A stretch of DNA of 64,000 nt, from assembly GCA_049719805.1 (NCBI GenBank), contig JBNARF010000002.1, forward strand, positions 275,495-339,494, written 5' to 3'. Shown here in pieces: positions 17,549 through 35,797 of this stretch. The notes beneath the pieces are model-generated. The model saw nothing but the letters and a program-made list of their open reading frames with translations, did no database searches and was not told the origin of the DNA. This DNA comes from Candidatus Hydrothermia bacterium (lineage in GTDB: Bacteria; Hydrothermota; Hydrothermia; UBA1063). A program made the translations under genes and the position numbers. Positions within the stretch are counted from its first letter, which is position 1, and each line of letters opens with the position of its first letter.

Positions 17549-18207
17549 AGAAGTTATTTGATGTTCTTTTCGAGCATTTTGGGCCTCAAAACTGGTGGCC
17601 CGGTGATTCACCCCTTGAAATAATTGTGGGAGCAGTTCTCATGCAGAATACTGCTTGGAAAAATGTTGAAAAAGCGATAACAAACTTGAAAGAAAAGGGT
17701 CTTTTAGATGTTGAAAAAATACTGGGGATTGAGGATTCTTACCTTGCTGAAATTATAAAACCCAGTGGGTTCTATAATCTTAAGGCGAAAAGGTTGAAAT
17801 CGGTGCTTAAGTTTGTAAAAAATAATCGCGGGATTGAGGTGATTTCAGGGAAAGAAAAACACGAATTACGAAGTGAGCTCCTTAAAATTCCGGGAGTGGG
17901 AAAAGAAACAGCGGATTCTATAATACTTTACGCTTTGGGTAAGCCTATTTTTGTAGTGGATGCTTATACCCGCAGGATCTTAAAGAGAATTGGTATAATA
18001 GATGACGAAAATATGAGCTACGACGAAATTCAAAAACTATTTCACGAAAACCTTCCTAATGATGAGAAACTTTTTAACGAGTTTCACGCGTTATTTGTGG
18101 CCCTCGGGAAAAAGTATTGTTTAAAGAGAAATCCGTTATGTAACCTCTGCCCTGTCAAAAGTTATTGTAAATATGGGAGGGAATTTAGTGGTTCGAACGG
18201 GAATTGA
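17530..18207 (+). CDS. HhH-GPD base-excision DNA glycosylase (endonuclease III-related) with [4Fe-4S] cluster loop
   Basis: 225 aa; VLMQNTAWKNVEKAI region, helix-hairpin-helix (LLKIPGVGKETADSIILYA), C-terminal C-x6-C-x2-C-x5-C (CLKRNPLCNLCPVKSYC). Confidence 0.7.
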   Translation: MQKGTIEKLFDVLFEHFGPQNWWPGDSPLEIIVGAVLMQNTAWKNVEKAITNLKEKGLLDVEKILGIEDSYLAEIIKPSGFYNLKAKRLKSVLKFVKNNRGIEVISGKEKHELRSELLKIPGVGKETADSIILYALGKPIFVVDAYTRRILKRIGIIDDENMSYDEIQKLFHENLPNDEKLFNEFHALFVALGKKYCLKRNPLCNLCPVKSYCKYGREFSGSNGN

Positions 18208-19360
18208 TAACATTAATAGATTTTGGCCAAAAGCGCTGAAAAGAGCTAGGATTGGCCTTCTGGCTCATTCCGCTTCGGTTAGCAGTAACTTGAAGTATTC
18301 ATGGGATGTATTGAGGGATGAAAACCTGGCAGAACTGGTGGCAATTTTTGGACCACAACATGGACTTTTTGGTGAGACCCAGGCCAATATGGTGGAGTGG
18401 GAAGGTTATAAGGATCCTGTTACAGGCTTGTACATTTACAGTCTTTACGGAAAAAACAGAAAGCCGACAAAGGAAATGCTTGAAGGAATTGATGGCATAG
18501 TTATTGATCTTCAAGATGTGGGTTCTCGCTACTATACCTACATATGGACCATGTACTTGGTTATGGAAGCTTGCCTTGAGAATAAGAAGTTTGTTGTGGT
18601 TCTTGATAGACCCAATCCAATTAGTGGCATTTCCGTTGAGGGGCCTGTCTTAAAGGAGGAATATTCTTCCTTTGTGGGTCTAAAACCCCTTCCTATAAGG
18701 CACGGAATGACCATAGGAGAAATAGCATTATACTTTAAAGAGACTTTTCTTAAAGATCTTGAACTTCATGTTATAAGAATGACGGGATGGAAGCGTGGCT
18801 TTTTCTGGTCAGATACAGGATTGGAATGGGTAAATCCTTCACCCAATATGCCTTCCGAGAAAACTGCTCTTCTATATCCCGGTATGTGCCTTCTTGAGGG
18901 CACTAATTTAAGTGAAGGAAGGGGCACTACAAGACCCTTCGAAATTTTTGGTGCACCTTTTATAGACCCCTTTAAACTTAGCGAAAAATTGAATTCCCTT
19001 AAATTAGATGGAGTTTTCTTTAGACCCCTTTACTTCATCCCGAGTTTTGACAAATTTAAAGGCGAGAGATGTGGTGGCATACAGATTCATATTCTGGATA
19101 AGAGAAAAATAAAACCCTTTAAGGTCGGAGTTGCAGTACTTATGACCGTTATGAGTATGTATCCTGAAGGTTTCAGTTGGTCTTCCGGTCCATATGAATA
19201 TGAGTTTGAAAAGAAACCGATAGACATTCTTGCGGGGACAAGTCGTTTAAGGGAAGCACTGGAAAGGGGAGAGCCTCTGAAAAAACTGGAAGAGTGGTGG
19301 AATCAAGAATCAAAGGAATTTGATGAGCGGGTAAGAAAAAAGTATCTTCTTTATGAGTGA
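18173..19360 (+). CDS. DUF1343-family protein (NamZ-like exo-beta-N-acetylmuramidase)
   Basis: 395 aa; DUF1343 signatures (GLLAHSASV, FGPQHG, DRPNP); start may be an internal Met since the ORF overlaps the upstream gene. Confidence 0.65.
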   Translation: MGGNLVVRTGIDNINRFWPKALKRARIGLLAHSASVSSNLKYSWDVLRDENLAELVAIFGPQHGLFGETQANMVEWEGYKDPVTGLYIYSLYGKNRKPTKEMLEGIDGIVIDLQDVGSRYYTYIWTMYLVMEACLENKKFVVVLDRPNPISGISVEGPVLKEEYSSFVGLKPLPIRHGMTIGEIALYFKETFLKDLELHVIRMTGWKRGFFWSDTGLEWVNPSPNMPSEKTALLYPGMCLLEGTNLSEGRGTTRPFEIFGAPFIDPFKLSEKLNSLKLDGVFFRPLYFIPSFDKFKGERCGGIQIHILDKRKIKPFKVGVAVLMTVMSMYPEGFSWSSGPYEYEFEKKPIDILAGTSRLREALERGEPLKKLEEWWNQESKEFDERVRKKYLLYE

Positions 19361-21230
19361 GCTATATATCCTTGTTTTATCCGCTGGATTCGGTGAACGC
19401 CTCAGACCTATTACTTACTCTATTCCCAAGGTTCTTTTACCTGTACTTGGCAAACCCCTCCTTATCAGGGTCCTTGATAATTTAAAAAAGTTTTTCCCGC
19501 GCTCAGAAGTTTACGTAAACTTGCACCATCTTGCTGAAAAAGTAAGCAGAAGTTTAAAGGAATTTTACCCTGAAGTTATTACCGTTTACGAGCCTCAGAT
19601 ATTAGGAACAGGTGGAGGAATTGTTAATGTTTCAAAAATCTCCCGTGGAGATAATATCCTGGTGCAAAATGGAGATATTCTAACATATTTTGATTTAAGA
19701 GGGTTTTATGAATACCATAAAAAGAATAATTTTGACATTACGCTGGCTATTAGCCAAAAAGTTTCTAAAAAAAATCTGCTGGTAAAAGGCACATTATTTC
19801 AGGGTATAAAGGAGGAAGGGCATACAGGATTTGCCGGCGTTGCTATTTATAACATGGAATTACTTCGGAACATGAGTCTGTATACTTTTGATGCTAAGGA
19901 AGTATGGGAATATTGCATAAGAAGAGGTGGACGTATTGGAGTATTTGACATTGGAGATTCCTTCTGGGTGGATGTGGGTACTCCACAAAGTTACGCCAGA
20001 TTGATACGAAATATATTGCAAAAATATGGCGAAAATGTTTTTATAAATACAACATCTTTGGATTTGCCAGTGGTGGAATTTGACGGCTTTTTCGTGATAG
20101 AAGGGGAACCTCGCCTTATTAAAGGGAGCAAATTCAGGAATGTCATTATTATCGGAGATCCTGAGGTAGAGTTCGGAATTTATGAAAACTGTCTGATTTC
20201 ACCTTCGGGTAAGACTACCTTTAGTGAGATAGAGGTTTTTGGTGGGGTGGGTAATGGGTATGAAACAGGATTTGGAGGATCTGACAGGAAGTTTATAAGG
20301 TTTTTCAAGGGCTCAGGGGAAAGATTAGTGGAATGCCATTTTGGTAATGATAGAGAAAGTTTAGAAAAACATTTAATGGCTTATAATTTACTTTTAAAAT
20401 GCGGCATCCCAGTGGCACGAATTTACAATGTGGATCATAAACGTAATGTTATTCAGATGGAAGATCTCGGAGATGTAACCCTTTATTCTTTTTTGAAGTA
20501 TCCGCCCAACAAAGTTTTTGAGAAAGAATTCTATTTTAAAGGTATTGATTATTTAGCAAGATTACATGCCTTGGGGGTTAAAGAGAAAGAATCGGAATAC
20601 TTTAGAAGGTGGCAATTTGATTACGAGTATTTTCTTTGGGAGCAAAACCATTTTTTCAACAATTTTTTGGAAAGAGTGTTGGGAGTTAAGGCAGGAAATA
20701 GTTTAAAGGAATGTTTGAGCAAAATTGCGGAGATTTCCGCGTCCTTTCCACGAGTTGTTCTGCACAGGGATTTTCAGAGTCAGAATTTAATGGTGGACAG
20801 GATGGGGGGTTTAAGAGTAATTGACTTTGTAGGAATGCGTTGGGGTCCTAAAACTTATGACCTTGTTTCTTTCCTGTTTGATCCCTACAGAGACATAGGA
20901 GAAGAACTAAGAGAGAGCTTAATCAGTTATTATATAGAGCGATATAAAGAGCTAAGTGGTAACAAACTAACTAGAGAAGAAATTGATAAGGAACTCCCTT
21001 ATATCAGGGTCCAAAGACTCCTTCAAGCTCTGGGTGCATACGGATATCTTTCCAGGGTGAAGGGTAAAACATTTTTTGAAAAGTTTTTCTTCCGAGGCGT
21101 GCAACTTCTCATTGATGTCCTAGCTCACAAAGCTTTGCGATGTAAAGAGTTAAATGAATTATTTCTGATTTTAAAAAATGCTTTTCTTGACACTAAGGAT
21201 AATATTGATTATAATATACCAATTGTTTGA
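19353..21230 (+). CDS. Bifunctional sugar-1-phosphate nucleotidyltransferase (MurU/LicC-like) / APH-fold kinase (AmgK/LicA-like)
   Basis: 625 aa; N-terminal NTP-transferase motifs (LVLSAGFGERLRP, GTGGG); C-terminal phosphotransferase Brenner motif (VVLHRDFQSQNLMV) and DFVGM metal-binding loop. Confidence 0.6.
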   Translation: MSELYILVLSAGFGERLRPITYSIPKVLLPVLGKPLLIRVLDNLKKFFPRSEVYVNLHHLAEKVSRSLKEFYPEVITVYEPQILGTGGGIVNVSKISRGDNILVQNGDILTYFDLRGFYEYHKKNNFDITLAISQKVSKKNLLVKGTLFQGIKEEGHTGFAGVAIYNMELLRNMSLYTFDAKEVWEYCIRRGGRIGVFDIGDSFWVDVGTPQSYARLIRNILQKYGENVFINTTSLDLPVVEFDGFFVIEGEPRLIKGSKFRNVIIIGDPEVEFGIYENCLISPSGKTTFSEIEVFGGVGNGYETGFGGSDRKFIRFFKGSGERLVECHFGNDRESLEKHLMAYNLLLKCGIPVARIYNVDHKRNVIQMEDLGDVTLYSFLKYPPNKVFEKEFYFKGIDYLARLHALGVKEKESEYFRRWQFDYEYFLWEQNHFFNNFLERVLGVKAGNSLKECLSKIAEISASFPRVVLHRDFQSQNLMVDRMGGLRVIDFVGMRWGPKTYDLVSFLFDPYRDIGEELRESLISYYIERYKELSGNKLTREEIDKELPYIRVQRLLQALGAYGYLSRVKGKTFFEKFFFRGVQLLIDVLAHKALRCKELNELFLILKNAFLDTKDNIDYNIPIV

Positions 21231-21250
21231 TAGGTGTAAGGTGATAAAAA

Positions 21251-23050
21251 ATGTTTAAGACAAGTGGACCAGATTTCAAAAAAATTAAGCTCGAAGCCCA
21301 AAAGCTCATTGGGCAGGGTAAATATCAGGAAGCGTTAAATAAGTTAATAGAACTAAGCAAGCAGATCAGCGACCCAGAAGTTTACAATTCTATTGGCGAC
21401 CTCTATATCAGGTTCCAGAATAATGAGCAAGCCCTTCAATATCTCGAAAAAGCATACAAAATCTACAGAGAGCAGGATTTCAGAGAGATAGCTATTTCTG
21501 TGGCTAAGAAAATTCTTCGTATCGAAAAGGATAGGCATGATATTTACATTGATTTGGTTGAAATGGAAATGGAGAACGGTAATGTGGATAAAGCCCTTGA
21601 TTGGGCATTGGAGTTTGTAAAGCTACCTAACCCTGATCCTAGCTATGTGGGTAAGCTTTTTAGATTATTAAATGATATAGCTAATGAAATTCAGGAGAAT
21701 ACAGAACAGGCGACAAAATTCGAGAGACTCTTCATTAAATTGCAAGAGCTTGCGGAGCAGCTCTCTTTAGCTACCCTTGAGTCAGGAATTGAAATTGCGG
21801 ATGCAAAGGAATTTTTTGATAAAGGAGATTTTGAAGAATACGGTGGATTTTTTGATGCGGGTCACCCAGCTGAAGAAGCGAAGATTAAGAAAACCACCAG
21901 AAAGAAGGAAGAGCAAGAACCTGTTGAAAAGATAGAATTTTTTGAACAAGAAGAGGAAGAGAAAAGTTTTATAACTGCTTCTGGATTTTCCAATTTTCTT
22001 GAAGTGGAGAAATCTGATAATATTGAAAAAACCGTTCTGGAAGAGAAACCTACATCTTCTCATAAGTCAGAAGAAAGTGTGAAATTCGAGATTTCTGAGA
22101 AAACTGAGTTTGTAGAAGAAACTGAAGAAAAATTGGATTTGTTACCCCCTGAATCCAAGAGCGTCTCGGATAAGAGGCCGCCATCTGAGCAGTTTAAAAC
22201 AGTTTTAGAGGAAGAGCTTCCAGAGGAAATCGAGGCAGAACAAAAGGTATGGGAATCATTGACATCAAAAAAAATCACCGAACAGAAGCCGGTTCCTGAA
22301 GTAACAAGCAGTAAAGAATCTTCAGCTGAAGAGGAGGAACCTGAAAAACTCAGGGTGGCTTTTGACGAGTATGTGAAACTGAAAGAAGAGGAGAAAAAAG
22401 TCACTTTTGATGAGGTTGTAAGCGAGAAATTTAAGAGTGAATCAAAGGAAGAACCGAAACTGGAGCAAAAACCGACTGAGGGGGGAGTTCTCGAAAAAGT
22501 TGTAAAAGAGTCAACAACTGAGAAATTCTCCAAGGAGTTTAAGTCTTCCGTTTTTCAGGAAAAAGAAGCAGCACCCGCTGTAGTGCAGAAACCTAGAGAA
22601 TTTAGTGAAGCTATGTCAGATTTACTAAAGATTATAAGAGATTTCAAAGAAGATCTTGTTGGTTTAGAGACGTGGCCTTACTCTTCCGATTCTCCCTTTG
22701 AAGTTGCAAAAGAATATTACGAAATGAAGCTCTATCAGCCAGCAGTCGAAGAATTCCAGAAGCTTCTAGGAGACCCCAGATACAGGCTTCAATCAATGAC
22801 TTATTTAGGAAAGATATTCTATGAAAGGGGTGAGTTAGATTTTGCCGAGGCAATACTCAGGAAGGCTATCGAAGAAGCTGGATATATGGAGAAGGAATCC
22901 ATTGAGGCTTACTATTATCTTGCCCTAACCCTTGAGGCGCTTAAGCGTTTTATGGAAGCAAAAGAATTATATTTGAGGGTGTATATATTCGATTCAAGTT
23001 TTAGGGATGTTGCTGCAAAAGTAATGACATTAAGGAGTAAAGCACTATGA
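21251..23050 (+). CDS. Hypothetical protein: TPR-like helical termini flanking a long acidic/Lys-rich low-complexity region
   Basis: 599 aa; TPR-like N- and C-terminal segments, central ~300 aa rich in E/K/S/T; stop overlaps the next gene's start (ATGA). Confidence 0.45.
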   Translation: MFKTSGPDFKKIKLEAQKLIGQGKYQEALNKLIELSKQISDPEVYNSIGDLYIRFQNNEQALQYLEKAYKIYREQDFREIAISVAKKILRIEKDRHDIYIDLVEMEMENGNVDKALDWALEFVKLPNPDPSYVGKLFRLLNDIANEIQENTEQATKFERLFIKLQELAEQLSLATLESGIEIADAKEFFDKGDFEEYGGFFDAGHPAEEAKIKKTTRKKEEQEPVEKIEFFEQEEEEKSFITASGFSNFLEVEKSDNIEKTVLEEKPTSSHKSEESVKFEISEKTEFVEETEEKLDLLPPESKSVSDKRPPSEQFKTVLEEELPEEIEAEQKVWESLTSKKITEQKPVPEVTSSKESSAEEEEPEKLRVAFDEYVKLKEEEKKVTFDEVVSEKFKSESKEEPKLEQKPTEGGVLEKVVKESTTEKFSKEFKSSVFQEKEAAPAVVQKPREFSEAMSDLLKIIRDFKEDLVGLETWPYSSDSPFEVAKEYYEMKLYQPAVEEFQKLLGDPRYRLQSMTYLGKIFYERGELDFAEAILRKAIEEAGYMEKESIEAYYYLALTLEALKRFMEAKELYLRVYIFDSSFRDVAAKVMTLRSKAL

Positions 23051-24288
23051 TGAAGAAGGATTTAAAAGTTGAAGAAAAACCTCAAGGTAAGGTTACCTTC
23101 GTGGAGCTTCTTGAAAAGAGCGGCATCATTTCCAAAGAGGCCATTAAAGCTGCCCTTGCTGAGCAATGGGAGAGAGGGGGAACTTTAGAAGAGATTCTCG
23201 TTGAAAAGGGATACTTAAACGAGGAACAATTTGTTAAATTTATACTTGATAAATTTCCTATGCTACATTATGTGAGCTTGAAAGATATAGATATTGATAC
23301 TGAAGCTGTTGAACATATCCCAGCCAGAATTGCTAAGAAGTACTTACTGATCCCGGTTAGAAAGAAGGGGAAATCCTTAGCTGTGACCATGGCAAATCCC
23401 TTAAATAAAGAAATGCTCATCGAACTGAAAAACGTTACAGATTTGAAAATTAGACCATTTGTTTCAAAGATTTCGGAGATAAAGGAAGCCATTGCTAAGT
23501 ATTACGGAGAGATTGGAGAAGCAGAGGAAATTCCAGAACCTTTCACTGCAGATAAAGTTAAGAAAGAGATTGGAGTCCTGATAGCAAAGGATAAAACCTT
23601 TGAAAATTTCGTGGTCGGGGAAACTAATAAGCATGCCTATTTGCTTTGCGCAGATATTGCAAAAACTCGAGGAGTTGGAGAGAAGCGGCTTTTCATATGG
23701 GGGCCAGAAGGTACGGGGAAAACTCATCTTCTTCAAGCTATTGCGAACTACCTTTTAGAGAATGAAGCTCTAAGGAGATTCATATACATTGATGCTATAA
23801 AGTTTGTTACAACCCTGAAGGGTTTTAAGTCAGAGCGCGAGGTGGATCGGTATTTAAAAATTCTTACAGATCTTGATTTACTTCTCTTTGATGACTTAGA
23901 CTTTCTAATAGGTAAGGATTATGCTCAAGAGGCTTTATTTTCAGTGCTTTCTGAATTAAGAATGACCGATAAACAAGTGGTAATATCCTCATCATATCCG
24001 ATGAAGGATATGCCTACTTTGAGCGTAAAAGTAAAATCTTTAATTTCTGAATTCCTTGTAGTTGGAATGGATGAGCCCTCCGTGGAGCTTAAAAGGGACA
24101 TTGTAAAAAGATTTTTGCAGGAAGAATCACTTCCCTCTGGTGTAGTTGAGTTTCTTGTAAAGAAGCCTGGTTTAACAGTTAAAAAGATTGAATCTATTGT
24201 TCGCACATTGCTCACTTACAAGAGGATAGGAGAGAAAATTGATGAAAATCTTTTAAATAAGGTGGTTTCAGGGATTATTGAAAGTTAA
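23047..24288 (+). CDS. Fusion protein: N-terminal GspE-N (T2SSE_N/MshEN-like) domain + DnaA/Hda-like AAA+ ATPase domain, no DnaA domain IV
   Basis: 413 aa; residues ~15-155 match the GspE/PilB N-terminal domain pattern; residues ~180-400 match DnaA domain III: FVVGETNKHAY, Walker A WGPEGTGKTHLL, Walker B LLLFDDLDFL. Confidence 0.6.
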   Translation: MMKKDLKVEEKPQGKVTFVELLEKSGIISKEAIKAALAEQWERGGTLEEILVEKGYLNEEQFVKFILDKFPMLHYVSLKDIDIDTEAVEHIPARIAKKYLLIPVRKKGKSLAVTMANPLNKEMLIELKNVTDLKIRPFVSKISEIKEAIAKYYGEIGEAEEIPEPFTADKVKKEIGVLIAKDKTFENFVVGETNKHAYLLCADIAKTRGVGEKRLFIWGPEGTGKTHLLQAIANYLLENEALRRFIYIDAIKFVTTLKGFKSEREVDRYLKILTDLDLLLFDDLDFLIGKDYAQEALFSVLSELRMTDKQVVISSSYPMKDMPTLSVKVKSLISEFLVVGMDEPSVELKRDIVKRFLQEESLPSGVVEFLVKKPGLTVKKIESIVRTLLTYKRIGEKIDENLLNKVVSGIIES

Positions 24289-24302
24289 AAGGGGGTTTTA
24301 AA

Positions 24303-25922
24303 ATGGCTTTGTTAGGTCAACTGGGTTTGGGAGCTAAGGGCAAAACGAAAGGGAGCATAGTAGCCCTTGATATAGGTTCAAAATATGTAAAAGCTGCGTT
24401 ATTTGAGAGAAGGAAGAACGAGTTAGTGTTTAGGGGACTAGCTGTGGAAAAGGTCCCACCCGATGTGATCCTGGGTAAAGATATAATCGACCGGCAGGTT
24501 CTGGTAGATAAGATAAGGGATGCTTACTCCAAGCTTGGCACTGAAGTTAGAGATGTGGTGGTGAACGTAGCCGGTGGTGAGGTGAAAACTAAGGCCTTCG
24601 TTATACCTGACCTAAAGAAAAAAGAAAAGATAGCGGAGGCAGTGGACTGGAAGATAAAGGATGAGTTGCACGTGGATCCTACCGAGATAGTCAGGGATTA
24701 CGAACTTCTTGGAAAAAGCGAAGTGAGTGAGTCTCTGGATATGCTTGTGGGTACTGCCAAGTTGAGTGTGGTTTATGATATCATGGATATTGTGAGGGCT
24801 GCAAGACTTGAGCCTATAATGGTTACAACCGATCTCCTGGCCCTTTGGAGAGTTATTGAGGCCCTCGATTTAAAAGACCTTCCTGGAGATAACGTATTTT
24901 TCCATCTGGGTTACGAAGTGGGACTCCTAATTCATGTTAAAGATGGCAAGATCCAACAGATGATCGAAGTCCCAGCGGGTTTAAAATCATATGTGGATAA
25001 CTTATCCAGATTCTTTGACCTAAGAGTAGAAGAGGCCGAAGAAATTGTTATAAATGGCCCTACTTCCGGTATTGATAAAGTTTCTTTTGATGAGACTGTT
25101 GATTCGCTCCATGAGAGGTTTCTTTCGCCTGAAAAATATATACCTTTACTTGGTGAGCCAGGTGTTAAATTTAATTTATACATCTCTGGTGGTGGAAGTA
25201 AATTATACGGTGTAAGTGCTTTTGTTAAGAATAAGTATGGTGTCGATCTTAAATTCATAGATGTCTCAACCTTGTTTGCAGTTGAAGAACCTGTAAAGGG
25301 TATCAAAGATTATTTAAACTTACTAACTATAGTAATTGGTGATGCACTTCATTATTTCAGGAAAGGGCACAAGATAAACTTAATGCCTCAAGAAGCAGGG
25401 ATGGAAGCAGTAGCGGTTGAGGGTGAGGTTTCTTTATTACCTCATGTGGTGGGGGCACTCTCAATATGGCTTGTAATTGTCATTGTAATTGCTGTGCTGT
25501 CCATCGGAACCTCAAGGAGGATTTCAGGGCTTAAGAATCAAATAGCCAGGTTACAGGCTGAAGAGGTGGAACTTCAGAGAAAAGCTGACGAAATCAGGGG
25601 ATTTAAACAAGAAATTGAAGACGCCAGGCGAAAATTGGATCTTATTCAGCAGCTTCAAATGGGTAGAACGGTTTATGTAAGACTTCTCGATGAAATAAAC
25701 AGGGTTCTTCCCTCCGGGTGCTGGCTCGAGTCTGTAAGAAAAAGTGGTAGTTATCTTAATGTTTCTGGAGGAGCCCTTTCAAATATTAGAATATCTCAAT
25801 TTATGTCTAATCTCAAAAAGTCAGATGTAGTTGATTCTGTATACCTCCAGTCCATTGAAGTCTCTGGGGGTAGTCAACAAGAAAGATATGCAAGGTTTGA
25901 AATTAATGTTAAACTGAAATAA
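24303..25922 (+). CDS. pilM: Type IV pilus assembly protein PilM fused to PilN-like TM/coiled-coil/periplasmic region
   Basis: 539 aa; actin-like PilM N-terminus (IVALDIGSKYVKAA), then TM helix (ALSIWLVIVIVIAVLSIG), coiled coil and periplasmic domain as in PilN. Confidence 0.65.
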   Translation: MALLGQLGLGAKGKTKGSIVALDIGSKYVKAALFERRKNELVFRGLAVEKVPPDVILGKDIIDRQVLVDKIRDAYSKLGTEVRDVVVNVAGGEVKTKAFVIPDLKKKEKIAEAVDWKIKDELHVDPTEIVRDYELLGKSEVSESLDMLVGTAKLSVVYDIMDIVRAARLEPIMVTTDLLALWRVIEALDLKDLPGDNVFFHLGYEVGLLIHVKDGKIQQMIEVPAGLKSYVDNLSRFFDLRVEEAEEIVINGPTSGIDKVSFDETVDSLHERFLSPEKYIPLLGEPGVKFNLYISGGGSKLYGVSAFVKNKYGVDLKFIDVSTLFAVEEPVKGIKDYLNLLTIVIGDALHYFRKGHKINLMPQEAGMEAVAVEGEVSLLPHVVGALSIWLVIVIVIAVLSIGTSRRISGLKNQIARLQAEEVELQRKADEIRGFKQEIEDARRKLDLIQQLQMGRTVYVRLLDEINRVLPSGCWLESVRKSGSYLNVSGGALSNIRISQFMSNLKKSDVVDSVYLQSIEVSGGSQQERYARFEINVKLK

Positions 25923-25935
25923 AGGAGGTTTAATT

Positions 25936-26385
25936 ATGAAGAGGTATTTTTACCTTATAATTGCAGTAGTCCTTGGTCTTGTGCTTTCATCCTGTGAAAA
26001 GGTGGATAAAGACGCTACACTGACAGGTCGGGTAGGGTATGCCATTGCGTATATCGATACGGTTCATCAGGAAACCACCTTTGTTTTTCAAAATGCAGCG
26101 GGTGCAAGGGTTTATTTAATGGGTGATGATGCTTCACCTAATCCTTATACAGGTCCGGTACTTGAAACCACTACTGATTCCACCGGAACTTATCAGTTTG
26201 TCGTAAATGCTGTGACTGAGCCCAGTACCTCTTTTATCCCTACTAACAATTTTGGGATTAAGATTCAGGTGTTCTACTTTGATAATATAATTGGCCCAGC
26301 CTATGGAGAACTTAGCGGATATCACTTTACGCCCGGGAAAGACGCCACACTTCCAATAATATATCTTAAGCGGCAAACTCAGTAG
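25936..26385 (+). CDS. Small lipoprotein, beta-sandwich-like (carboxypeptidase-regulatory-like); unknown function
   Basis: 149 aa; signal peptide with lipobox LVLSSC; TGTYQF-type motif; AGGAGG RBS; sits between pilMN and pilO. Confidence 0.5.
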   Translation: MKRYFYLIIAVVLGLVLSSCEKVDKDATLTGRVGYAIAYIDTVHQETTFVFQNAAGARVYLMGDDASPNPYTGPVLETTTDSTGTYQFVVNAVTEPSTSFIPTNNFGIKIQVFYFDNIIGPAYGELSGYHFTPGKDATLPIIYLKRQTQ

Positions 26386-26394
26386 GAGTGAAAA

Positions 26395-26985
26395 ATGGAA
26401 AAATTAAAATCTCCGGCAGTAATATGGCTTTTAGGAGTAATTATATACGTATTGACCTTTATGTTCCTCTGGAATTCCATGTATGCCTCCAAATCCAGGG
26501 AACTCAAGACAGTAGAAGCAAAATATAAGGAGCAATACTCTAGAGTTCAGAATCTTCGTGAATTTGTAAAGGATTATGATAGAATAATAAGAGAAAAGGA
26601 CTCTTTGCTTGCCCTGTGGGAGGAGACTCAGAGGTTTTTGCCTCAGGAAGAAAATATGGACACATGGCTTTCTCAGATTACTGGTATGGCCATTAGTTCA
26701 GGGGTTCAAATATACAGTTTTAAGCCACAGTCACCCAGACAGCAGGAATTATATCGAGAGTATCCCATTGTGATGAAGGTAAGGGGTGGCTTCCATGAGC
26801 TTGGTACATTTATAAGCTTTATAGCCAACTCAGAGAGGATAATGAGTGTGGAGAATCTTCAACTACAACGTGTATCAGGACAAGAAATAGAGAGTGGACA
26901 AACGGTTGATGCTGAATTGACGGTTATATGTTATGTTTATAGTCCAGTGCAGGGGGCCGGAAAACCATCGGGAGGTTCACGATGA
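26395..26985 (+). CDS. pilO: Type IV pilus assembly protein PilO-like
   Basis: 196 aa; N-terminal TM helix, coiled coil, periplasmic domain; position between pilMN and pilP/pilQ. Confidence 0.55.
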   Translation: MEKLKSPAVIWLLGVIIYVLTFMFLWNSMYASKSRELKTVEAKYKEQYSRVQNLREFVKDYDRIIREKDSLLALWEETQRFLPQEENMDTWLSQITGMAISSGVQIYSFKPQSPRQQELYREYPIVMKVRGGFHELGTFISFIANSERIMSVENLQLQRVSGQEIESGQTVDAELTVICYVYSPVQGAGKPSGGSR

Positions 26986-27770
26986 GAAAAATTGTATTTT
27001 TTAATTTTTTATTTATTACATTATTGCTTAGCACTTTGCGAGCCCAGAATATGATAACTTCTTATTCTGTTCAAGAATCCGATGAAGGAGTTAGCATTAT
27101 TCTCGAGTTCTCTGAAGGGGTACCTCAGTATAGAGATTTTACCCTTGCAAATCCTCCCAGGATAGTGGTAGATTTGATTAACGTGGGGTATTCCTTAGGG
27201 GGAAAGCTTTTCGTAGTGGGAAAAGGTGGAGTGGAGCGAATAAGAGGAGCTCAGTACCAGAGAGAGCCGGAACTTGTTGCAAGAATTGTTCTTGATGTAG
27301 ATGAGTTTAGAAGCTACTCCATAGTAACATCGGAGAAATCCCTTATAATAAAAGTAGGTGGTATATCCAGCGTACCCTATTCCTCTTCTGCGCCAGGCGA
27401 AGCTGCTCCAGCACCTACCGAGAAAACCACTACAGTAAAAACTGAAGAAAAACAATACAAATTGGAAGTTGGGGAGAAGTACTTCTATTCTTCAAGGGGT
27501 AAAAAAGACCCCTTTAAGCCAGAAGCATTTGGTGAAGAGGAAGAACTTTTAAATGTTAGCGAGGCAAAACTCCTTGGGATTATAAAAAGCGATGAAGGAA
27601 ATGTAGCCCTTCTTCAGGATAGAAGGGGAGTAGGCTACGTTTTGAAAGAAGGAGACAGGGTCAGAAACGGTCGGGTAGTAAAGATTGAATCCGACCGTGT
27701 AGTTTTCGCTATTGTAGATTTTGGTTTTACAAGAAGGGTTGAATTAAAATTGGAGGAAGAAAATAAATAA
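26982..27770 (+). CDS. Secreted AMIN-domain protein with C-terminal PilP-like domain
   Basis: 262 aa; signal peptide; AMIN-like motifs (PPRIVVDLINV, ARIVLDVDE); Pro/Ala/Thr linker; C-terminal KDPFKP...LLGII...VKIESDRVVF resembles PilP. Confidence 0.5.
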   Translation: MRKIVFFNFLFITLLLSTLRAQNMITSYSVQESDEGVSIILEFSEGVPQYRDFTLANPPRIVVDLINVGYSLGGKLFVVGKGGVERIRGAQYQREPELVARIVLDVDEFRSYSIVTSEKSLIIKVGGISSVPYSSSAPGEAAPAPTEKTTTVKTEEKQYKLEVGEKYFYSSRGKKDPFKPEAFGEEEELLNVSEAKLLGIIKSDEGNVALLQDRRGVGYVLKEGDRVRNGRVVKIESDRVVFAIVDFGFTRRVELKLEEENK

Positions 27771-27784
27771 AAGGAGGTTTAGTA

Positions 27785-28969
27785 ATGGGGATTTTTAGAA
27801 AAGCGCTTCTTATCCTGCTTACGGTGAGTGTAATATCTGCTCAAGAAGCCCGAATCACCATGAGTGTAGAACAGGCAGATATAAAAACCGTATTGAGAGC
27901 CTTTGCAGAAGTTGGGAGAGTTAATATAATTACAACACCGTCCGTAACTCAGAAAGTTACTTTTAACATAAAAGATGTACCCTGGAGACTGGCTCTAAAA
28001 TCCTTGCTTGATGCCTATGGGCTTGCAATGATTGAAAGTGAGGGACTCATCACCATTATGACTCAACAGGAGTTTGCAAACTTAAAAACAGCAGCGGACC
28101 TGGATATTAAAGTACTTAAAGTACGTTATGCCGATGCCCGAAAAGTTGCAGAGGTCTTAAAGTCGCAGTTATCTCCAAGAGGAGATATTAAGTTGGATGA
28201 AAGCTCTAACGCCCTTATTGTCACGGATCTCAGAGTAAACCTGTACAGAGTGGAGGATCTCCTCACCCAGGTAGATAAGCCTTACCCCCAGGTTATGATA
28301 AAAGGAAGAATAGTGGAAGTGGACTACAATGAGTCAAGAAGGCTTGGGTCAGAGCTTAAAGCAATTAGGTTTGGAAATCCCGGTTTCGAAGCCTCACCCT
28401 ATACTGCTGGAGGACTTGAACCTGAAAACGCAACTTATTTAACGGTGAATTATCTCGGACCTAATGCTGCAAGAATTGAGGCAGCTATTGATGCTCTTGA
28501 GGGCAAATCAAAAGCCAATACCATTTCTGAGCCTAAAATCATGGTCCTTGACAATGAAAAGGCATCTATATATTCGAAGATAAGGGTGCCGGTTATTTCA
28601 AGGGATATGGCCGGAAATACTGTCGTTCAGTTTGAAGAAACCGGTATAAGCCTTGAAGTAACACCTCATATTATTCCAGATGGCAAAGTGGTTCTACACA
28701 TTAAAACAGAGACTGGGGACCTCACCGGATATTCTGCTGCTGGTCAACCAATAACCTCCAAGAGAGGAGCAGAGACGAAGGTTACAGTACCTGATGGAGA
28801 AACTGTATTAATTGGTGGTGTTATCATTGACAAGGATAAGAAAGCTAATTCAGGCCTTCCTTTGCTTTTGAGAATCCCCATTTTAGGCCAGATTTTTGGT
28901 CGTCATTCTGTAGAAAAAAGTAAGGCTGAGATTTTGATATTCTTAACACCCACTGTGGTGAGAGAATGA
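27785..28969 (+). CDS. pilQ: Type IV pilus secretin PilQ (minimal form)
   Basis: 394 aa; signal peptide, secretin N-domains, C-terminal secretin signature (GETVLIGGVI...PLLLRIPILGQIFG...ILIFLTPTVV). Confidence 0.85.
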   Translation: MGIFRKALLILLTVSVISAQEARITMSVEQADIKTVLRAFAEVGRVNIITTPSVTQKVTFNIKDVPWRLALKSLLDAYGLAMIESEGLITIMTQQEFANLKTAADLDIKVLKVRYADARKVAEVLKSQLSPRGDIKLDESSNALIVTDLRVNLYRVEDLLTQVDKPYPQVMIKGRIVEVDYNESRRLGSELKAIRFGNPGFEASPYTAGGLEPENATYLTVNYLGPNAARIEAAIDALEGKSKANTISEPKIMVLDNEKASIYSKIRVPVISRDMAGNTVVQFEETGISLEVTPHIIPDGKVVLHIKTETGDLTGYSAAGQPITSKRGAETKVTVPDGETVLIGGVIIDKDKKANSGLPLLLRIPILGQIFGRHSVEKSKAEILIFLTPTVVRE

Positions 28970-29526
28970 AAATAAGATTTTTCAATCACAAGAAGGGCCT
29001 CACATTAGTTGAGGTCCTTCTTGTGATTTTTATTATCAGTATCTTAGTAGCAATACCTTTCTGGGGGGGGACTCAATATATAGCCCGCAACAGGCTAAGA
29101 AGTGAAGCGGTTAAGATTAAATCCTTTACCGAAAACGAGAGAACCAATGCTATGGCCATGACCACAAGACGTGCCATAGAGTTCAATGGGTGGGATGTAA
29201 CAATTTACGTGGAAGATCTATCGCGCCCTTTGCCTAATCTGGATTCTATTGTTGCCACTTACCCCAATTACTTTAGCTCTAAAATAAATTTCGGCGGGCT
29301 TCCGGGTGCGACGGCTCTAAGGGGAGGTTCCATTGACTCCGATGGTGTAATGTTTGGGAGTTCTCAGAATAATAACAGGTTGGTCTTCACAGCCTTTGGA
29401 CTTGTTGAGAATCCCGGAGAGCTATATATAAATGATGGACGAAATCTAATGTGTATCGCTGTTAACGGATTTGGACAAGTTAGAATATATAGATGGACAG
29501 GGGGAAGCTGGAATGAAGTTAAATAA
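28966..29526 (+). CDS. Prepilin-type minor pilin/pseudopilin (FimU/GspH-like)
   Basis: 186 aa; class III signal peptide KKG/LTLVEVLLVIFIISILVAI with Glu at +5. Confidence 0.65.
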   Translation: MKIRFFNHKKGLTLVEVLLVIFIISILVAIPFWGGTQYIARNRLRSEAVKIKSFTENERTNAMAMTTRRAIEFNGWDVTIYVEDLSRPLPNLDSIVATYPNYFSSKINFGGLPGATALRGGSIDSDGVMFGSSQNNNRLVFTAFGLVENPGELYINDGRNLMCIAVNGFGQVRIYRWTGGSWNEVK

Positions 29527-29935
29527 AAAAGGTTTTTCTCTTATTGAGCTTCTCGTGGCTCTTTCTATACTGGCTATTGGACTCCTCGGTATAATTCCCC
29601 TTGCTATCACCACTATACGCCTCAATACCTATCAGAATCAAATGCTTAATGCTAAGTATTTAGCAGAGAGGCAGGCGGAATTTTTAAGAAGTATTACGTT
29701 TACTGCACCTGAACTCGCAAATGATAACGACAACAATGACCTATACGATACCGCAAACCCTGACCACATTCTTGCTACAACCATTGAAGGGATCACATAT
29801 AATGTGATGTGGAACATTGTGGATGATTCTGCCGGGACTAGAACTATTAATATAATAGTTCAGTGGGTTACGCCACGAACTGGAGAAACAAAAAACTATA
29901 ATATTACCCTCGTAAGGAGTAGCTATGAAATTTAG
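29513..29935 (+). CDS. Prepilin-type minor pilin (PilV-like)
   Basis: Prepilin motif KKG/FSLIELLVALSILAIGLLG; chosen start ATG 29513 (MKLNKKGF...), ORF track starts at 29471; overlaps upstream gene by 14 nt. Confidence 0.65.
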   Translation: MKLNKKGFSLIELLVALSILAIGLLGIIPLAITTIRLNTYQNQMLNAKYLAERQAEFLRSITFTAPELANDNDNNDLYDTANPDHILATTIEGITYNVMWNIVDDSAGTRTINIIVQWVTPRTGETKNYNITLVRSSYEI

Positions 29936-30827
29936 AAGAGCTATAACACTCTTGGAACTTATTGTGGCTTTGGGCATATTATCTGTGCTTCTTACTAGTG
30001 TTTTTATAGTATATAGAAATCAAATGAGGACAGCCACCACTCAGCAAAGTATTTCCGTTCTCCAGACTGATATTCAGCAGGCTTTTAACATTCAAAAGTG
30101 GGATATGCTGATGAGCGGGTATGGTGTTAGTGCAAATGTTGCTCCCATATGGAGCATAAATAAGACAAATGCCCCTGATTCTTTAATATTACGGAGCACG
30201 GGTTTTCTTATTGGTGGTACCACCCGCTGGAGTTACGTTATGGATGCAATGACGGGGACTGAACTTATCGTTGGGCGCTGGAATGACGAAAGGGAAGATA
30301 TTCATGTTGGTGACGTGATTGTAATAATGACTGATAGAAAGGGTCAGATAGCTCCACCTGTTTCTGTCACAGCTCGCGAGGCGATGACTTATAACAATCA
30401 GGATGCGTACAGGCTGACCTTAAGTGGGAATGTTCAAACGGCTCAGGGTAACTTTGTCTTTGTGGTTCCTGGAGGTCAATTTCAAACTGTAGTTTATTGG
30501 GTTAGAAATGACACGCTGTTTCGGGGGAATGAGCCCTTTTTAACGGGAGTTGAAGATTTTCAGGTATCTCACTGGGTGGACTTAAATGGCAATGGGATAG
30601 AGGATGTGGGGGAGAGGGTTATGAATCCTTCTGGTGTAAGTAATTTTACGGGTTTCTTAAGGTCTACAAGGGTTAGTCTTGTGCTTTTAGGTCCTGTGGA
30701 TAGAGATTATACATTCCCTGATAATCAAATTACTGTGGAAGATCATACCTATACAATTACCGGGTCTGCGAGGAATAGAAGGCGCAGGTTTTATACCATA
30801 GAAGTAAAAGCGAGGAATATAAGATGA
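29925..30827 (+). CDS. Prepilin-type minor pilin (PilW-like), atypical Ala at -1
   Basis: 300 aa; N-terminus MKFRRA/ITLLELIVALGILSVLL with Glu at +5 but Ala instead of Gly before the cleavage site. Confidence 0.55.
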   Translation: MKFRRAITLLELIVALGILSVLLTSVFIVYRNQMRTATTQQSISVLQTDIQQAFNIQKWDMLMSGYGVSANVAPIWSINKTNAPDSLILRSTGFLIGGTTRWSYVMDAMTGTELIVGRWNDEREDIHVGDVIVIMTDRKGQIAPPVSVTAREAMTYNNQDAYRLTLSGNVQTAQGNFVFVVPGGQFQTVVYWVRNDTLFRGNEPFLTGVEDFQVSHWVDLNGNGIEDVGERVMNPSGVSNFTGFLRSTRVSLVLLGPVDRDYTFPDNQITVEDHTYTITGSARNRRRRFYTIEVKARNIR

Positions 30828-31273
30828 AAAAAGGAGTTGCTTTAATAACGGTGATTCTCGTAGTTGCGTTTCTTGTGGTTTTAGGTGGAATAACAGCCTA
30901 CATGGTCCAGAGAAGTTTGAGAATTACCGGGACCTTCAGAAGGGCTCTATCCACCTTTGAGGCTGCGGAAGGTGGTATTGAGATAGGTGTGAATGAGATA
31001 TGGTCTGCTTCAGAAGAAGGAAGATCACTGGGAACGATAACGAGGAACGTAGGACAAAGGTCAGTAACTGTAACACCATCTCGTCTTTTTGTGATGACGG
31101 AAAGGGGTGGCTCATTAGAGTTTGCTGCGGCATACGAAGGTGTTGGAAGGGGAGTAGGAGGGGGTGGTGCTGCAATATTTTATAGAATCTTATCTTTATC
31201 CCGCGGTGGACCTGAAGATAGGGTGGAACTTGAAGTTTTATATAGGAAAGTTGTAGGTATAATAGCACAATAA
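30824..31273 (+). CDS. PilX-like minor pilin / pilus assembly protein
   Basis: 149 aa; N-terminal hydrophobic helix (GVALITVILVVAFLVVLGGITAY) lacking Glu5, as in PilX. Confidence 0.5.
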   Translation: MKKGVALITVILVVAFLVVLGGITAYMVQRSLRITGTFRRALSTFEAAEGGIEIGVNEIWSASEEGRSLGTITRNVGQRSVTVTPSRLFVMTERGGSLEFAAAYEGVGRGVGGGGAAIFYRILSLSRGGPEDRVELEVLYRKVVGIIAQ

Positions 31274-31284
31274 AAGGAAAAGGG

Positions 31285-34200
31285 GTGATAATTATGTTTA
31301 AAAAAAGGTGGTTATTTGGTACATTAATGATTATAGTGGGGGCACTCATGGCTCAAACCACTGAGATGCCCTGCAACGTTCCGCCGTTTTTGGCGGAGAA
31401 AATTCCGCCGAATATCTTAGTTATTATGGACAATTCTGGTTCTATGGGTGAAATGGCATATAATGAGCCTTATAACCCTAACAAAAAATACTATGGCTAT
31501 TTTAATCCCGATGCAGTTTATCGTTATGACAACAATGAATGGGTTCCTGTAGATCAAAGTGCAAACTTTAATACCACCTGGCCTGGAAACCTCTTGAACT
31601 GGGCAATTATGTCACGTTTCAGTGTTTTAAAGAAAGTTCTTGTGGGTGGAAAGGCAACGGCACGAAGCCCCAGGGGATTTGCCCACACCCTGATTTGTGA
31701 GTCACGCAATTCCTGGGATAAATATTACACATATGGCGGAAGTAAATACCGTTTTACCGTTTCCGGTGGAAGTGCTGGATCTGCGAGTAGTATAGTAATA
31801 AGGAGATGGACAGGAAGGAATTGGGTGCAACTGCTTTCTGCAACTAATAAAGTTGCAATCGACTCAACCTTCTCCCGAGGTGTTATTCAGAAGCTTGGTG
31901 ATAAGGATATAGATGGCAGATGGGATGATGACACTCCGAGATTCTGGCTAATAATGTTTAATAGCAGAGGGAATAACAGTGAAATGGGGTCAGGTAGTAC
32001 AACCCCAGTAAATGTCAGCGGGGAACACGATGGCGGTCGTGTGGAGTCTTATTATCAGGATAACAATTCAATGAGTGATTTTGTTAATGCCATTCAGAAT
32101 GCCAAAGCAGAGACCTGGACCCCCCTCGCTGAATGTTTACTTGAGACATGCTGGTATTTTAGACAAGTTCCCACACCTCTTTTCTTCCCTAATGACTACG
32201 GGACGGACCGGCAATGGGATCCTATGGAGCCTAAGAGTGTATGGTGCCGAAAGTCTTTTGTGCTCTTTTTGACCGACGGCCAGGCAACGAGAGATAGAGA
32301 TCCCGTTTTGCATCAGCATATAGGTGATTACGATGGTGACGGAATGGAACCATCGTTTTATCAGGGTGTAGATGATCCACAGTTCAGCAGCCATTACCTT
32401 GATGATGTAGCCTTTTGGATGCATACCAACGATCTGAGACCTGATATCCCGGGGACCCAGAACCTCACCCTTTATGGTGTCTTTGTTTTTGGATATGGGC
32501 ACGATCTTTTAAAAGAAGCCTGTAAAGATGGCGGATTCATCGATTACAATGGTAACAATAGACCTGACCTTACGAGAGAGTGGGATCATAATGAAGACGG
32601 AGTTCCCGATACATATTTCGAGGCACAGGAGGGAGAGCAGATCGAAAAGGCTATTATGGATGCGATACTCTCTATTTTAGCGAGGGTAAGTTCAGCTACG
32701 GCTGCATCTGTGGTCACTCAGACCCAGAGAGGTGAAGGAACTATATATCAGGCCTTTTTCCAGCCCACTTACACTACGCCTCTGGGCGAGATAAAATGGC
32801 TTGGACAATTGGTGGGCTACTTTGTTGATAAAAATGGAAATATTAGAGAAGATAGCAATAATGATTTAAGACTCACTAGTGATGACCGTATTTTGAAATT
32901 TAAGACTGAAGGAATTGAAACCAGAGTTGAGAGATGGGCTGCCACTTCTGATGATAATCCCCTTTACAAGGTTGATGAAGTAGACCTCTGGGATGTTAAT
33001 TTCCTCTGGGATGCTGGCAAAAGATTACTGGAAAGAAGCGCTGACGAGCGGATTATAAAAGCAATAATTAAACAGAATAACACATTTGCTCTCATAGATT
33101 TCAAAACCAATAACAGGAGCCTTCTCAGCTCTTACATGGAAGGTTCTGATGCCTTCAAGGACTCTTTAATAAATTACATTAGAGGTGTTGATTATAATAA
33201 TCCCAGCTGGCGATCCAGGACATTTGAGCCGAATAAGGTCTGGAAACTTGGTGATATAGTCTACTCTACGCCGACTTTTGTTGGAAGACCGACGGAAAGG
33301 TATGATCTCATATATGATGATGTATCTTACAGGGAATTTTACAACCGGAAGAAGAACAGGCGAAACATAGTCCTTGTTGGCGCCAACGATGGAATGCTCC
33401 ATGCGTTTAATGCCGGTATTTTTGATACACTTGAAAGAAGGGTAGATGGAATGGGTAGGAGTTTGGGTGAAGAATTGTGGGCAGTTATTCCTATGAACCT
33501 CCTTCCCCATTTGAAATGGCTGAAGGATCAGCAATATTGCCATGTTTACTATGTTGACCTTAAACCAAAAGTTACAGACGTAAAGATATTTAGTGATGAT
33601 GAGGATCATCCTGAAGGCTGGGGTACTGTCGCCATCGTAGGAATGAGATTTGGAGGAACTCCAATATCCATATCCAGTGGCACGTATAGGTCTGCTTTCT
33701 TTGCTCTTGACATTTCTAACCCAGATAATCCCCGGGTGTTGTGGGAGTTTACAGATCCCAATCTTGGTTATACTATTTCCTATCCCTCTGTTTTGAAAGT
33801 TGTGGATCAGAACGGTGAAAAGTGGTTCGTTGTTTTTGGTTCTGGAACCACAACTACCCCCACAGGACACACTTCCAATCAAAATGCTTATTTCTATATC
33901 CTTGATCTTAAGACGGGAGCCCTTTTAAGAAAGATACAGATACCATATCCTTCAAATCAGACGCAAGGTGCGTTTTGTGGTAATCCCATCTCCGTGGACG
34001 TTAAGCTGGATTACAGTTGTGATATAATCTATTTACCTGTTACATATATTGAAAGATCAGGTAATACAAATATAGAAAAGGGTGCTCTTTACAGGATAGT
34101 AACTGGCAATAGTACAAATCCGCAAGCCTGGTCCCTCTCCATGGCGATAAGACTAGATAGGCCAGTAACCTCAGGGACTGCCGCTTCCATGGACGAATAT

Positions 34201-34857: not shown

Positions 34858-34870
34858 AAGGGGGTAGAGC

Positions 34871-35227
34871 ATGTTTGCCTTTATAATTTTAATTTCCATC
34901 TTGACTCAATCAGGGATTCAGGTGACCCAGGGGGTGATTAGTACCCCCAGGGTCCTGCAAAAAGAATATCTAACTGATGAAGAGATGAGGGCCCTTCAAA
35001 ATACCATAGGCGGAGTTTTTATGGGGGTTTCTGATGATTCAAACTACATTTTCGTGAACGAAAAATACATAAAAATCGATAAGAGAACATTCAATTTCAA
35101 GAATTTGCCTGCTGTTGGCGAGGATGTCTTTATACGATTGGAAGAACGTGGGAAGGATAAAATCGGAGTATTCTGCTCTAATAACCTGGATGATGCTGTT
35201 TATTACAAAAAGGGACTTTTTAAATGA
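34871..35227 (+). CDS. Hypothetical small secreted/membrane-anchored protein
   Basis: 118 aa; N-terminal hydrophobic segment; no recognised motif. Confidence 0.3.
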   Translation: MFAFIILISILTQSGIQVTQGVISTPRVLQKEYLTDEEMRALQNTIGGVFMGVSDDSNYIFVNEKYIKIDKRTFNFKNLPAVGEDVFIRLEERGKDKIGVFCSNNLDDAVYYKKGLFK

Positions 35228-35778
35228 AGGGGCTTCTAATTCTTCTCATCATTCTTGTAATTTTGATTGTGGTTTTCATTTCCATCTACAATAGCCTTGT
35301 AAGATTGAGGGTCCTTGTTAAAAATGCTTTTGCTGATATTGACGTGCAGCTTAAGAAAAGACATGATCTTGTGCCTAATCTTGTGGAGACCGTAAAAGGC
35401 TACGCTGCCCACGAGAGAACCACACTGGAAAACGTAATTAAAGCAAGGCAGATGGCAGTTTCAGCTTCAACTCCCGATGACAAAATGAAATCCGAAAATA
35501 TGCTCACACAAGCTTTGAGACAGCTCTTTGCAGTCGTTGAAAATTATCCCAATCTAAAGGCTAATGAGAATTTTATGGCGCTGCAACAGGAGCTTTCCAA
35601 AATAGAAGAGTCTATTCAGAATGCACGCAGGTACTACAACGCCGTAGTCCGGGATTACAATACACGAATTATGGTTTTTCCGTCCAATATTGTTGCCAGT
35701 ATGTTTGGTTTCAGACCGGAGTCATTTTTCGAGATCGGAGAAGAGACAGAAAGAGAAGCACCCCAGGTTAAGTTCTGA
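35224..35778 (+). CDS. LemA-family membrane protein
   Basis: 184 aa; N-terminal TM helix then LemA pattern (YNSLVRLRVLVKNAFADIDVQLKKRHDLVPNLVETVKGYA). Confidence 0.8.
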   Translation: MKGLLILLIILVILIVVFISIYNSLVRLRVLVKNAFADIDVQLKKRHDLVPNLVETVKGYAAHERTTLENVIKARQMAVSASTPDDKMKSENMLTQALRQLFAVVENYPNLKANENFMALQQELSKIEESIQNARRYYNAVVRDYNTRIMVFPSNIVASMFGFRPESFFEIGEETEREAPQVKF

Positions 35779-35797
35779 ATAGGGATGAATCAAAGGA

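Follow-up and report, generated by a model that had tools for sequence, protein, structure and literature searches.

What a DnaA-type ATPase might be doing inside a type IV pilus operon is the question raised by a gene of Candidatus Hydrothermia bacterium, which lies at 23047..24288 (+ strand) of a 64,000-nucleotide stretch of contig JBNARF010000002.1 (GenBank assembly GCA_049719805.1). This whole stretch is referred to below as the window, and positions are given in its coordinates. The product of the gene, 413 residues long, joins an N-terminal MshEN domain to a C-terminal module of the DnaA domain III type, and is referred to as the fusion protein. In the current view, the hexameric ATPases of the PilB/PilT family are the only ones that power type IV pilus machines. 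The original prediction, made from the sequence of the window, had recognized the two halves and had suggested that the protein senses a second messenger or couples the state of replication or of the cell cycle to piliation. A different role is favoured here: with a probability of roughly 0.55, the fusion protein is an accessory cytoplasmic component in the machinery of type IVa pili, and neither a replication protein nor a pilus motor. This reading is carried by the gene order, the coupling to an upstream tetratricopeptide-repeat (TPR) gene, the coexistence of a genuine PilB and an N1 subdomain that resembles that of PilB and is highly conserved.

The domain make-up was established using profile searches, sequence comparison with solved structures and structure prediction. 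In Pfam, MshEN (PF05157) matched residues 74-156 with an E value of 2.2e-16 and Bac_DnaA (PF00308) matched residues 181-337 with an E value of 1.7e-33. In NCBIfam, the PilB model TIGR02538 aligned with residues 19-160 and the DnaA model TIGR00362 with residues 175-411, the latter over model positions 100-339 of 437; the fusion protein failed the equivalog cutoffs of both models (65 versus 676 bits for PilB and 159.9 versus 343.9 bits for DnaA). Because the DnaA alignment stops at position 339, domain IV lies outside it. No Pfam match was obtained in the fusion protein for DnaA domain IV (PF08299), for DnaA domain I (PF11638), the N-terminus being MshEN instead, or for the T2SSE ATPase domain (PF00437), and the earlier statement that the protein stops ahead of domain IV was borne out. 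The best sequence match to a solved structure was that to Thermotoga maritima DnaA domain III (E value 2e-32). The N-terminal half matched the MshEN domains of Thermus PilF (6F8L; 4e-28), the PilB structures 5ZFR and 3JC8 (4e-17) and MshE (5HTL; 6e-7). An AlphaFold2 model, with a predicted local distance difference test (pLDDT) score of 82.9, consisted of two folded domains and a disordered linker, the pLDDT falling below 50 at residues 155-173. In Foldseek, the AAA+ part was matched to T. maritima DnaA domain III (2Z4R) with a template-modelling (TM) score of 0.90 and a root-mean-square deviation of 2.2 Å, and the N-terminal part to MshE (5HTL) with a TM score of 0.67; Hda structures ranked next after DnaA. 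Pfam, NCBIfam and Foldseek therefore agree with the original prediction on a GspE-N/MshEN domain at the N-terminus, and the Pfam and TM scores agree with it on DnaA domain III at the C-terminus. Along the chain, a four-helix MshEN_N subdomain (residues 17-70; 23095..23256) is followed by MshEN_C (residues 71-156; 23257..23514), which is equivalent to the N1 domain of PilB and GspE, by an acidic, disordered linker (residues 157-180; 23515..23586) and by the AAA+ module (23587..24285), which comprises a base (residues 181-343) and a lid (residues 344-413) without domain IV.

The gene sits in a pilus operon in which all genes are on the + strand. The probable operon start is a σ70 consensus promoter-like site, TTGACA-17-TATAAT, at 21187..21215, which matches the consensus at 12 of 12 positions, is the sole such match within 19000..36000 and ends 36 nucleotides before the start codon of a TPR protein (21251..23050; 599 residues). 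The latter has N- and C-terminal TPR blocks with a Glu/Lys-rich stretch of about 300 residues between them. With this promoter just ahead of it, the TPR gene is taken as the head of the operon and the fusion gene as second, so that the first position assigned earlier to the fusion gene has to be given up. The translational coupling of the two genes, which had also been proposed, was supported: the stop codon of the TPR gene and the start codon of the fusion gene share the ATGA at 23047..23050, and an AGGAG Shine-Dalgarno sequence stands nine nucleotides before the ATG. The adjacency of pilM-pilN was likewise correct, but the spacing is 14 nucleotides rather than 15 and a single PilM-PilN fusion protein of 539 residues is encoded (24303..25922). 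The operon continues with a small conserved protein of 149 residues without a Pfam match and with a lipoprotein-like N-terminus (LSSC; 25936..26385), PilO (26395..26985), a 262-residue AMIN-domain protein in the usual position of PilP (26982..27770), the secretin PilQ (27785..28969), four genes (28966..31273) encoding three pilin-like proteins with the N-methylation motif, one of which is also PilW-like, and one PilX-like protein, and a PilY1-like protein of 1190 residues (31285..34857). A scan of the window gave two GxxGxGK[ST] P-loops in total, one of them in the fusion gene, and none of the PilB/PilT type, in agreement with the earlier report that the window holds no PilB/PilT ATPase.

The PilM-PilN fusion is a GspL-like arrangement that was also found in the WOR-3/Hydrothermota, KSB1 and L012 loci carrying an MshEN/DnaA gene; in Omnitrophota loci PilM and PilN are separate genes. 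The secretin at 27785..28969 has no AMIN domain, AMIN being carried by the separate 262-residue protein.

The neighbourhood is conserved among relatives. In 11 of the 12 distinct loci examined, the fusion gene belongs to a pilus locus, in which it lies just upstream of pilM-pilN or pilB. The order in its own subfamily (TPR, fusion, PilMN, small protein, PilO, AMIN, PilQ, minor pilins and PilY1) is kept in full in loci L001, L004 and L007. In L018-L023, which represent six GTDB species, it is kept up to PilQ or until the contig stops. In each of these nine loci a TPR homologue lies directly upstream of the fusion gene and the 149-residue protein is kept between pilMN and pilO. The ATGA overlap with the TPR gene was present in five of nine close loci, with a gap of 9-10 nucleotides in the others, and PilMN usually starts 13-17 nucleotides after the fusion gene. 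The conserved order spans 42-81% identity, and the genes further upstream vary from locus to locus. Other orders also place the gene among pilus genes: TPR, PilT-like, fusion, response regulator, histidine kinase, PilMN, PilO and secretin in the KSB1 locus L011; PilD, stand-alone MshEN, TPR, fusion and PilMN in the WOR-3 locus L012; and the fusion gene directly upstream of pilB in L013, L016, L017 and the Hydrogenedentes locus L084. In L007, which carries a 42%-identical relative, a canonical PilB (MshEN followed by T2SSE), PilT, PilC and PilD adjoin the operon. The idea that the fusion protein replaces PilB is ruled out by the PilB-PilT-PilC set beside this operon; the protein is an addition to the motor and not a substitute for it.

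Within the subfamily, the part of the protein that resembles PilB N1 is the most conserved: members share a mean pairwise identity of 75% over MshEN_C (minimum 58%), and the corresponding means for MshEN_N, the AAA+ base and the lid are 66%, 58% and 45%. PilB N1 is thought to contact the PilM stator, as inferred from the GspE-GspL structures 2BH1 and 4PHT of the type II secretion system (PMC11656802), and docking of the MshEN half on PilM is proposed by analogy with this contact. The MshEN half would copy PilB N1 (MshEN/GSPII) and would dock either on the PilM portion of the downstream PilM-PilN product or on PilB itself. The same observations can be turned to another account, in which the fusion protein is a decoy or competitor of PilB: its N1 domain would fill the PilM socket or pair with PilB N1 and so block or time the motor, with the AAA+ module as a bulky, possibly oligomeric plug. 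The homology of the N-terminal half to PilB N1 over its whole length (6F8L; 5ZFR and 3JC8), the conservation of this domain above all others and the degenerate catalytic residues of the AAA+ half fit such a decoy, and competition for the stator between the ATPases of extension and those of retraction is known (PMC11656802). However, selection maintains the motifs of Walker A, Walker B and sensor II, which would be superfluous in a passive plug, and fixed co-expression within a structural operon suits a stoichiometric component better than an inhibitor. A decoy role of the N1 domain is kept as a live alternative, if a rather unlikely one.

The c-di-GMP (cyclic dimeric guanosine monophosphate) site was compared residue by residue. 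In MshEN domains that bind c-di-GMP, a motif of 24 residues, RLGxxhhxxGhhxxxxLxxxLxxQ, occurs twice in tandem (Wang et al., 2016; PMC5013675). MshE numbering was converted to that of the fusion protein by an offset of +8. In the first half-site, MshE R9 corresponds to Thr17 (with one Ser in the subfamily), L10 to Phe18, G11 to Val19 (Val or Ala in the subfamily) and Q32 to Gln40, which is retained throughout the subfamily, as is Phe18. In the second, R38 corresponds to Thr46 (Thr, Ser or Pro in the subfamily), G40 to Glu48 (invariant in the subfamily) and Q61 to Lys69 (Lys, Ser or Asn in the subfamily). Both half-sites are therefore degenerate: RLG is replaced by TFV in the first and by TLE in the second, and the second Gln by Lys. 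The fusion protein and all of 34 subfamily members gave no match to the motif, whether in its strict or in its relaxed form, whereas the relaxed form was matched at least once in 13 of 18 PilB-like controls and in 45 of 129 other family members; a strict RLG...Q half-site occurs in 13 of these 129 more distant proteins.

These results bear on the reading in which c-di-GMP, or a dinucleotide related to it, is bound by MshEN and the signal is relayed to pilus assembly by the AAA+ module. In its favour are the hydrophobic core positions L25, L29, L39, L54 and L58, which are kept as I/L/L/F/I, the more distant members in which at least one half-site survives and the score of 42.7 bits against the NCBIfam model NF053729 (MshE-related c-di-GMP-binding domain), which is above the cutoff of 38. 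As the profile does not see ligand contacts, this pass was read as a signal of the fold and core, and the structural glycines G18 and G47 are also kept in the subfamily. Against it, the contact changes R9T, G11V, R38T, G40E and Q61K are subfamily-wide, G11V and a substitution at G40 both figure among the changes listed for the non-binding XpsE (PMC5013675) and no GGDEF motif was found in the window. The contact positions on which the proposed c-di-GMP sensing depended are thus not conserved, and we consider this reading unlikely for the subfamily, in which MshEN appears to be without a c-di-GMP site. For relatives with RLG...Q, such as P0163 and P0258, sensing of c-di-GMP is plausible from the motif. 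The former pocket holds an invariant Trp41 and Glu48 in the subfamily and, judging from these residues, might have been retuned to another ligand or partner. As a separate observation, the canonical PilB of L007 (4011-5702, - strand) has an MshEN of its own without the c-di-GMP motif (KLLNTLV...) and without a relaxed-motif match.

In the AAA+ half, the nucleotide-binding motifs are better preserved than those for catalysis. Walker A is GPEGTGKT (residues 219-226; 23701..23724) and Walker B is LLLFDD (residues 278-283; 23878..23895); all 166 family domains have the Walker A Lys and the first Asp of Walker B. At sensor II the fusion protein has Lys379 (24181..24183), where most of the family has Arg; 153 of the 166 domains carry one or other of these two residues. 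On these motifs, the AAA+ half should bind ATP. The box VII-equivalent stretch, KVKSLIS (residues 328-334; 24028..24048), was placed using HMMER alignments to T. maritima and Bacillus subtilis DnaA. It has no arginine finger: the position of DnaA R285 is Leu332, with Leu, Phe or Ile in all 12 aligned subfamily members. The position of DnaA R281 is Lys328, invariant in the subfamily, and the sensor I 'SDR' of DnaA has become 'SSY'. The likeness to DnaA that had been described as motif-by-motif therefore extends to Walker A, Walker B and the basic residue of sensor II but not to the arginine finger or to sensor I, where Asp-Arg is replaced by Ser-Tyr; the finger is missing from the region that had been called box VII-like. 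Across the family, the arginine finger is Arg in 113 of 166 domains and is also absent from the KSB1/Calditrichota group. In a neighbour-joining tree of domain III, calculated without bootstrap and with long branches, the members without an arginine finger group together, and a single clade apart from DnaA was not resolved. With the arginine finger lost, a DnaA-like cooperative ATPase is unlikely and a nucleotide switch or scaffold likelier. The AAA+ half would thus be an ATP-binding, nucleotide-dependent switch or a self-association module.

With DnaA itself, the fusion protein shares the domain III fold including the lid, Walker A of the form GxxGxGKTHL, Walker B of the form hhhhDD and the basic sensor II. 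In addition to the altered arginine finger and sensor I, it differs in its location in a pilus operon and in the lack of domains I, II and IV, and without these domains it would be unable to read DnaA boxes or recruit the helicase. Hda, too, resembles DnaA domain III and has no domain IV, and a role as an Hda-like regulator linking piliation to the state of DnaA is suggested by the closeness of the AAA+ half to DnaA, by the rank of Hda among the structural matches and by a public label, 'DnaA/Hda family protein', attached to the protein. It is disfavoured by the score against the Hda model TIGR03420 (73.9 versus a cutoff of 194.8 bits), by the absence from the fusion protein of a clamp-binding motif of the QL[SDP]L[FPL] type, which Hda carries at its N-terminus, by the absence of a functional arginine finger, with which Hda triggers the hydrolysis of DnaA-ATP, and by a gene order that points to pili in 11 of the 12 loci. 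We regard such a regulator as very improbable, and with it the link to replication or the cell cycle drawn in the original prediction. An assignment to anti-phage defence was rejected, PADLOC having given only a weak generic AAA match.

DNA could also be handled directly during pilus-dependent uptake, if the pilus were of the competence type and an oligomer of domain III bound single-stranded DNA at its base. DnaA domain III alone binds single-stranded DNA in 3R8F, which is among the Foldseek matches, and many family members have the complete DnaA-like motif set. In the subfamily, however, the arginine finger needed for ATP-dependent DnaA filaments is lost, and the loci examined showed no com genes. 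Of the residues that we take to be the DNA-contact triad of Aquifex aeolicus DnaA (K188, R190 and T191, in GKERTQ), the fusion protein retains only the Lys, in GKDYAQ. A part in DNA uptake has, in our estimate, only a small chance of being correct.

Among other initiator-clade proteins, DnaC, DnaI and IstB likewise place a partner-binding N-terminal domain before the AAA+ module, and weak profile matches to them were obtained; the scores are under the family cutoffs, DnaA is clearly closer and the adaptor domain is a different one. With PilB, MshE and PilF the fusion protein shares the pilus gene context and an N-terminal region of 150 residues that is homologous over both subdomains. It differs from them in that an unrelated AAA+ module takes the place of the T2SSE ATPase, in the loss of the c-di-GMP half-sites and in that a genuine PilB coexists with the family. 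In function, parallels are offered by SgmX of Myxococcus xanthus, PilZ and FimX, which are cytoplasmic accessory proteins controlling pilus formation via PilB. SgmX is a TPR protein (PMC7519303, PMC7668184, PMC11656802), as is the upstream neighbour here, but there is no real sequence relationship (22 bits for the model versus a cutoff of 1800), and none of the three holds an AAA+ module.

The accessory component favoured here would act as follows. The fusion protein and the upstream TPR protein would be made in fixed proportion through translational coupling and would probably form one complex; the complex would be held at the base of the machine by the MshEN half, and its output would be control of assembly, of positioning or of the access of PilB and PilT. 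Three observations weigh against this account. At locus L015, no pil genes were found within 9 kb of the fusion gene. The lost arginine finger and altered sensor I mean that the AAA+ half may be catalytically dead and purely structural. Finally, domain III is fully DnaA-like in many family members, for which an activity related to DNA or DnaA, not revealed by the neighbourhood, is conceivable. As a link to the TPR neighbour, the TPR-DnaA domain III fusions P0288, P0267 and P0276 were also considered in the manner of Rosetta-stone proteins; the support is weak because their AAA+ domains are about 50% identical to both true DnaA and the family.

The distribution of the family was determined with an exhaustive profile search over 1.84 billion representatives, from which the top 150 proteins were classified; a member was defined as having MshEN followed by DnaA domain III, without domain IV and without a T2SSE domain. 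MshEN followed by DnaA domain III was found in 115 of the 150, the linkers ranging from 20 to about 780 residues; at the level of 50% identity, no fewer than 115 clusters share the architecture. A further 20 have two tandem DnaA domain III modules, and two have TPR repeats followed by DnaA domain III. Ten family members were scanned against Pfam and none had domain IV. Close to the fusion protein, about 35 clusters at 90% identity have the full architecture, with identities down to 41%, and all are from WOR-3/Hydrothermota; after these comes a drop in score from 325 bits to 121, the level at which true DnaA sets in. By source name, available for a minority of the records, the members come from WOR-3, Hydrothermota, KSB1, Calditrichota, Hydrogenedens and Hydrogenedentes. 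A word-filtered, broad-alignment search for homologues added P0270 and P0287 to the family and returned P0288 as the TPR fusion to DnaA domain III. A search with the N-terminal domain only, aimed at the PilB of the lineage, gave only short stand-alone MshEN proteins. The architecture is thus not the rarity for which it had been taken, being frequent in several candidate phyla, whose pilus loci carry it as a rule.

The view that this is not a described family can nevertheless be retained. Literature searches on MshEN with DnaA, on DnaA-like proteins in pili and on WOR-3 pili returned no description of the architecture, and no NCBIfam family model claims the protein. The paper on MshEN (PMC5013675) and its supplement list many partner domains, DnaA not among them, and a 2024 review of PilB cofactors makes no mention of DnaA, AAA+ or TPR. 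What is new is probably an extra AAA+ accessory family in the type IVa pilus system, in which two known domains are combined.

Several related architectures were noted alongside the family. At L016 (4619-16217; proteins P0130 and P0131), pilB is preceded by four consecutive MshEN-containing paralogues, of which three also have DnaA domain III. Among them are giants of 977 and 1984 residues with two DnaA domain III modules each, and similar proteins of 1876-1990 residues exist elsewhere. Twenty representatives of 430-1170 residues (P0135, P0137, P0139 and 17 others) have tandem DnaA domain III without MshEN, and in several tandem proteins the second copy has no arginine finger. Stand-alone MshEN proteins of about 147 residues are encoded directly upstream of a tandem pilB pair and pilC in L024-L097, from about 70 species genomes of Omnitrophota and Planctomycetes, often with PilT just before them (for example L027, 6965-12230). 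In L009 (6658-10137) and L010, a GGDEF cyclase gene lies directly upstream of that for a stand-alone MshEN.

In the window, at 18173..21230, a NamZ exo-muramidase gene is followed by one for a 625-residue protein in which a nucleotidyltransferase is fused to an APH-type kinase; the latter resembles the N-acetylmuramic acid recycling pair AmgK/MurU fused in one protein. Downstream, after a LemA gene, a strong bidirectional terminator-like hairpin at 35798..35824 (12 pairs, ten of them G-C) is the first convincing terminator after the pilus block.

Known PilB cofactors are small adaptors, such as PilZ, FimX and SgmX. In public databases, family members are labelled 'chromosomal replication initiator protein DnaA' or 'DnaA/Hda family protein', and the identical NCBI protein, from a Candidatus Hydrothermia genome bin of the class now named Caldifarciminia, is labelled 'DnaA ATPase domain-containing protein'. 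Labels naming DnaA may mislead the prediction of replication origins and the annotation of metagenome-assembled genomes. For work on the pilus itself, the family would supply a naturally occurring 'N1 domain on a different chassis', useful for studying the contact of the PilM stator with the N1 of PilB, which is poorly resolved. If the accessory role is correct, a DnaA-type AAA+ protein encoded in the structural operon across several phyla would be a new kind of regulatory or assembly component. More tentatively, as a possibility that we hold to be less probable than the accessory role itself, MshEN/DnaA domain III proteins could form a third, so far unrecognized, class of nucleotide-binding proteins at the type IV pilus base, widespread among WOR-3/Hydrothermota, KSB1, Calditrichota, Hydrogenedentes and uncultured lineages related to them; by ATP-dependent, DnaA-like assembly on the PilM ring, these proteins would gate the access of the motor or the positioning of the pilus.

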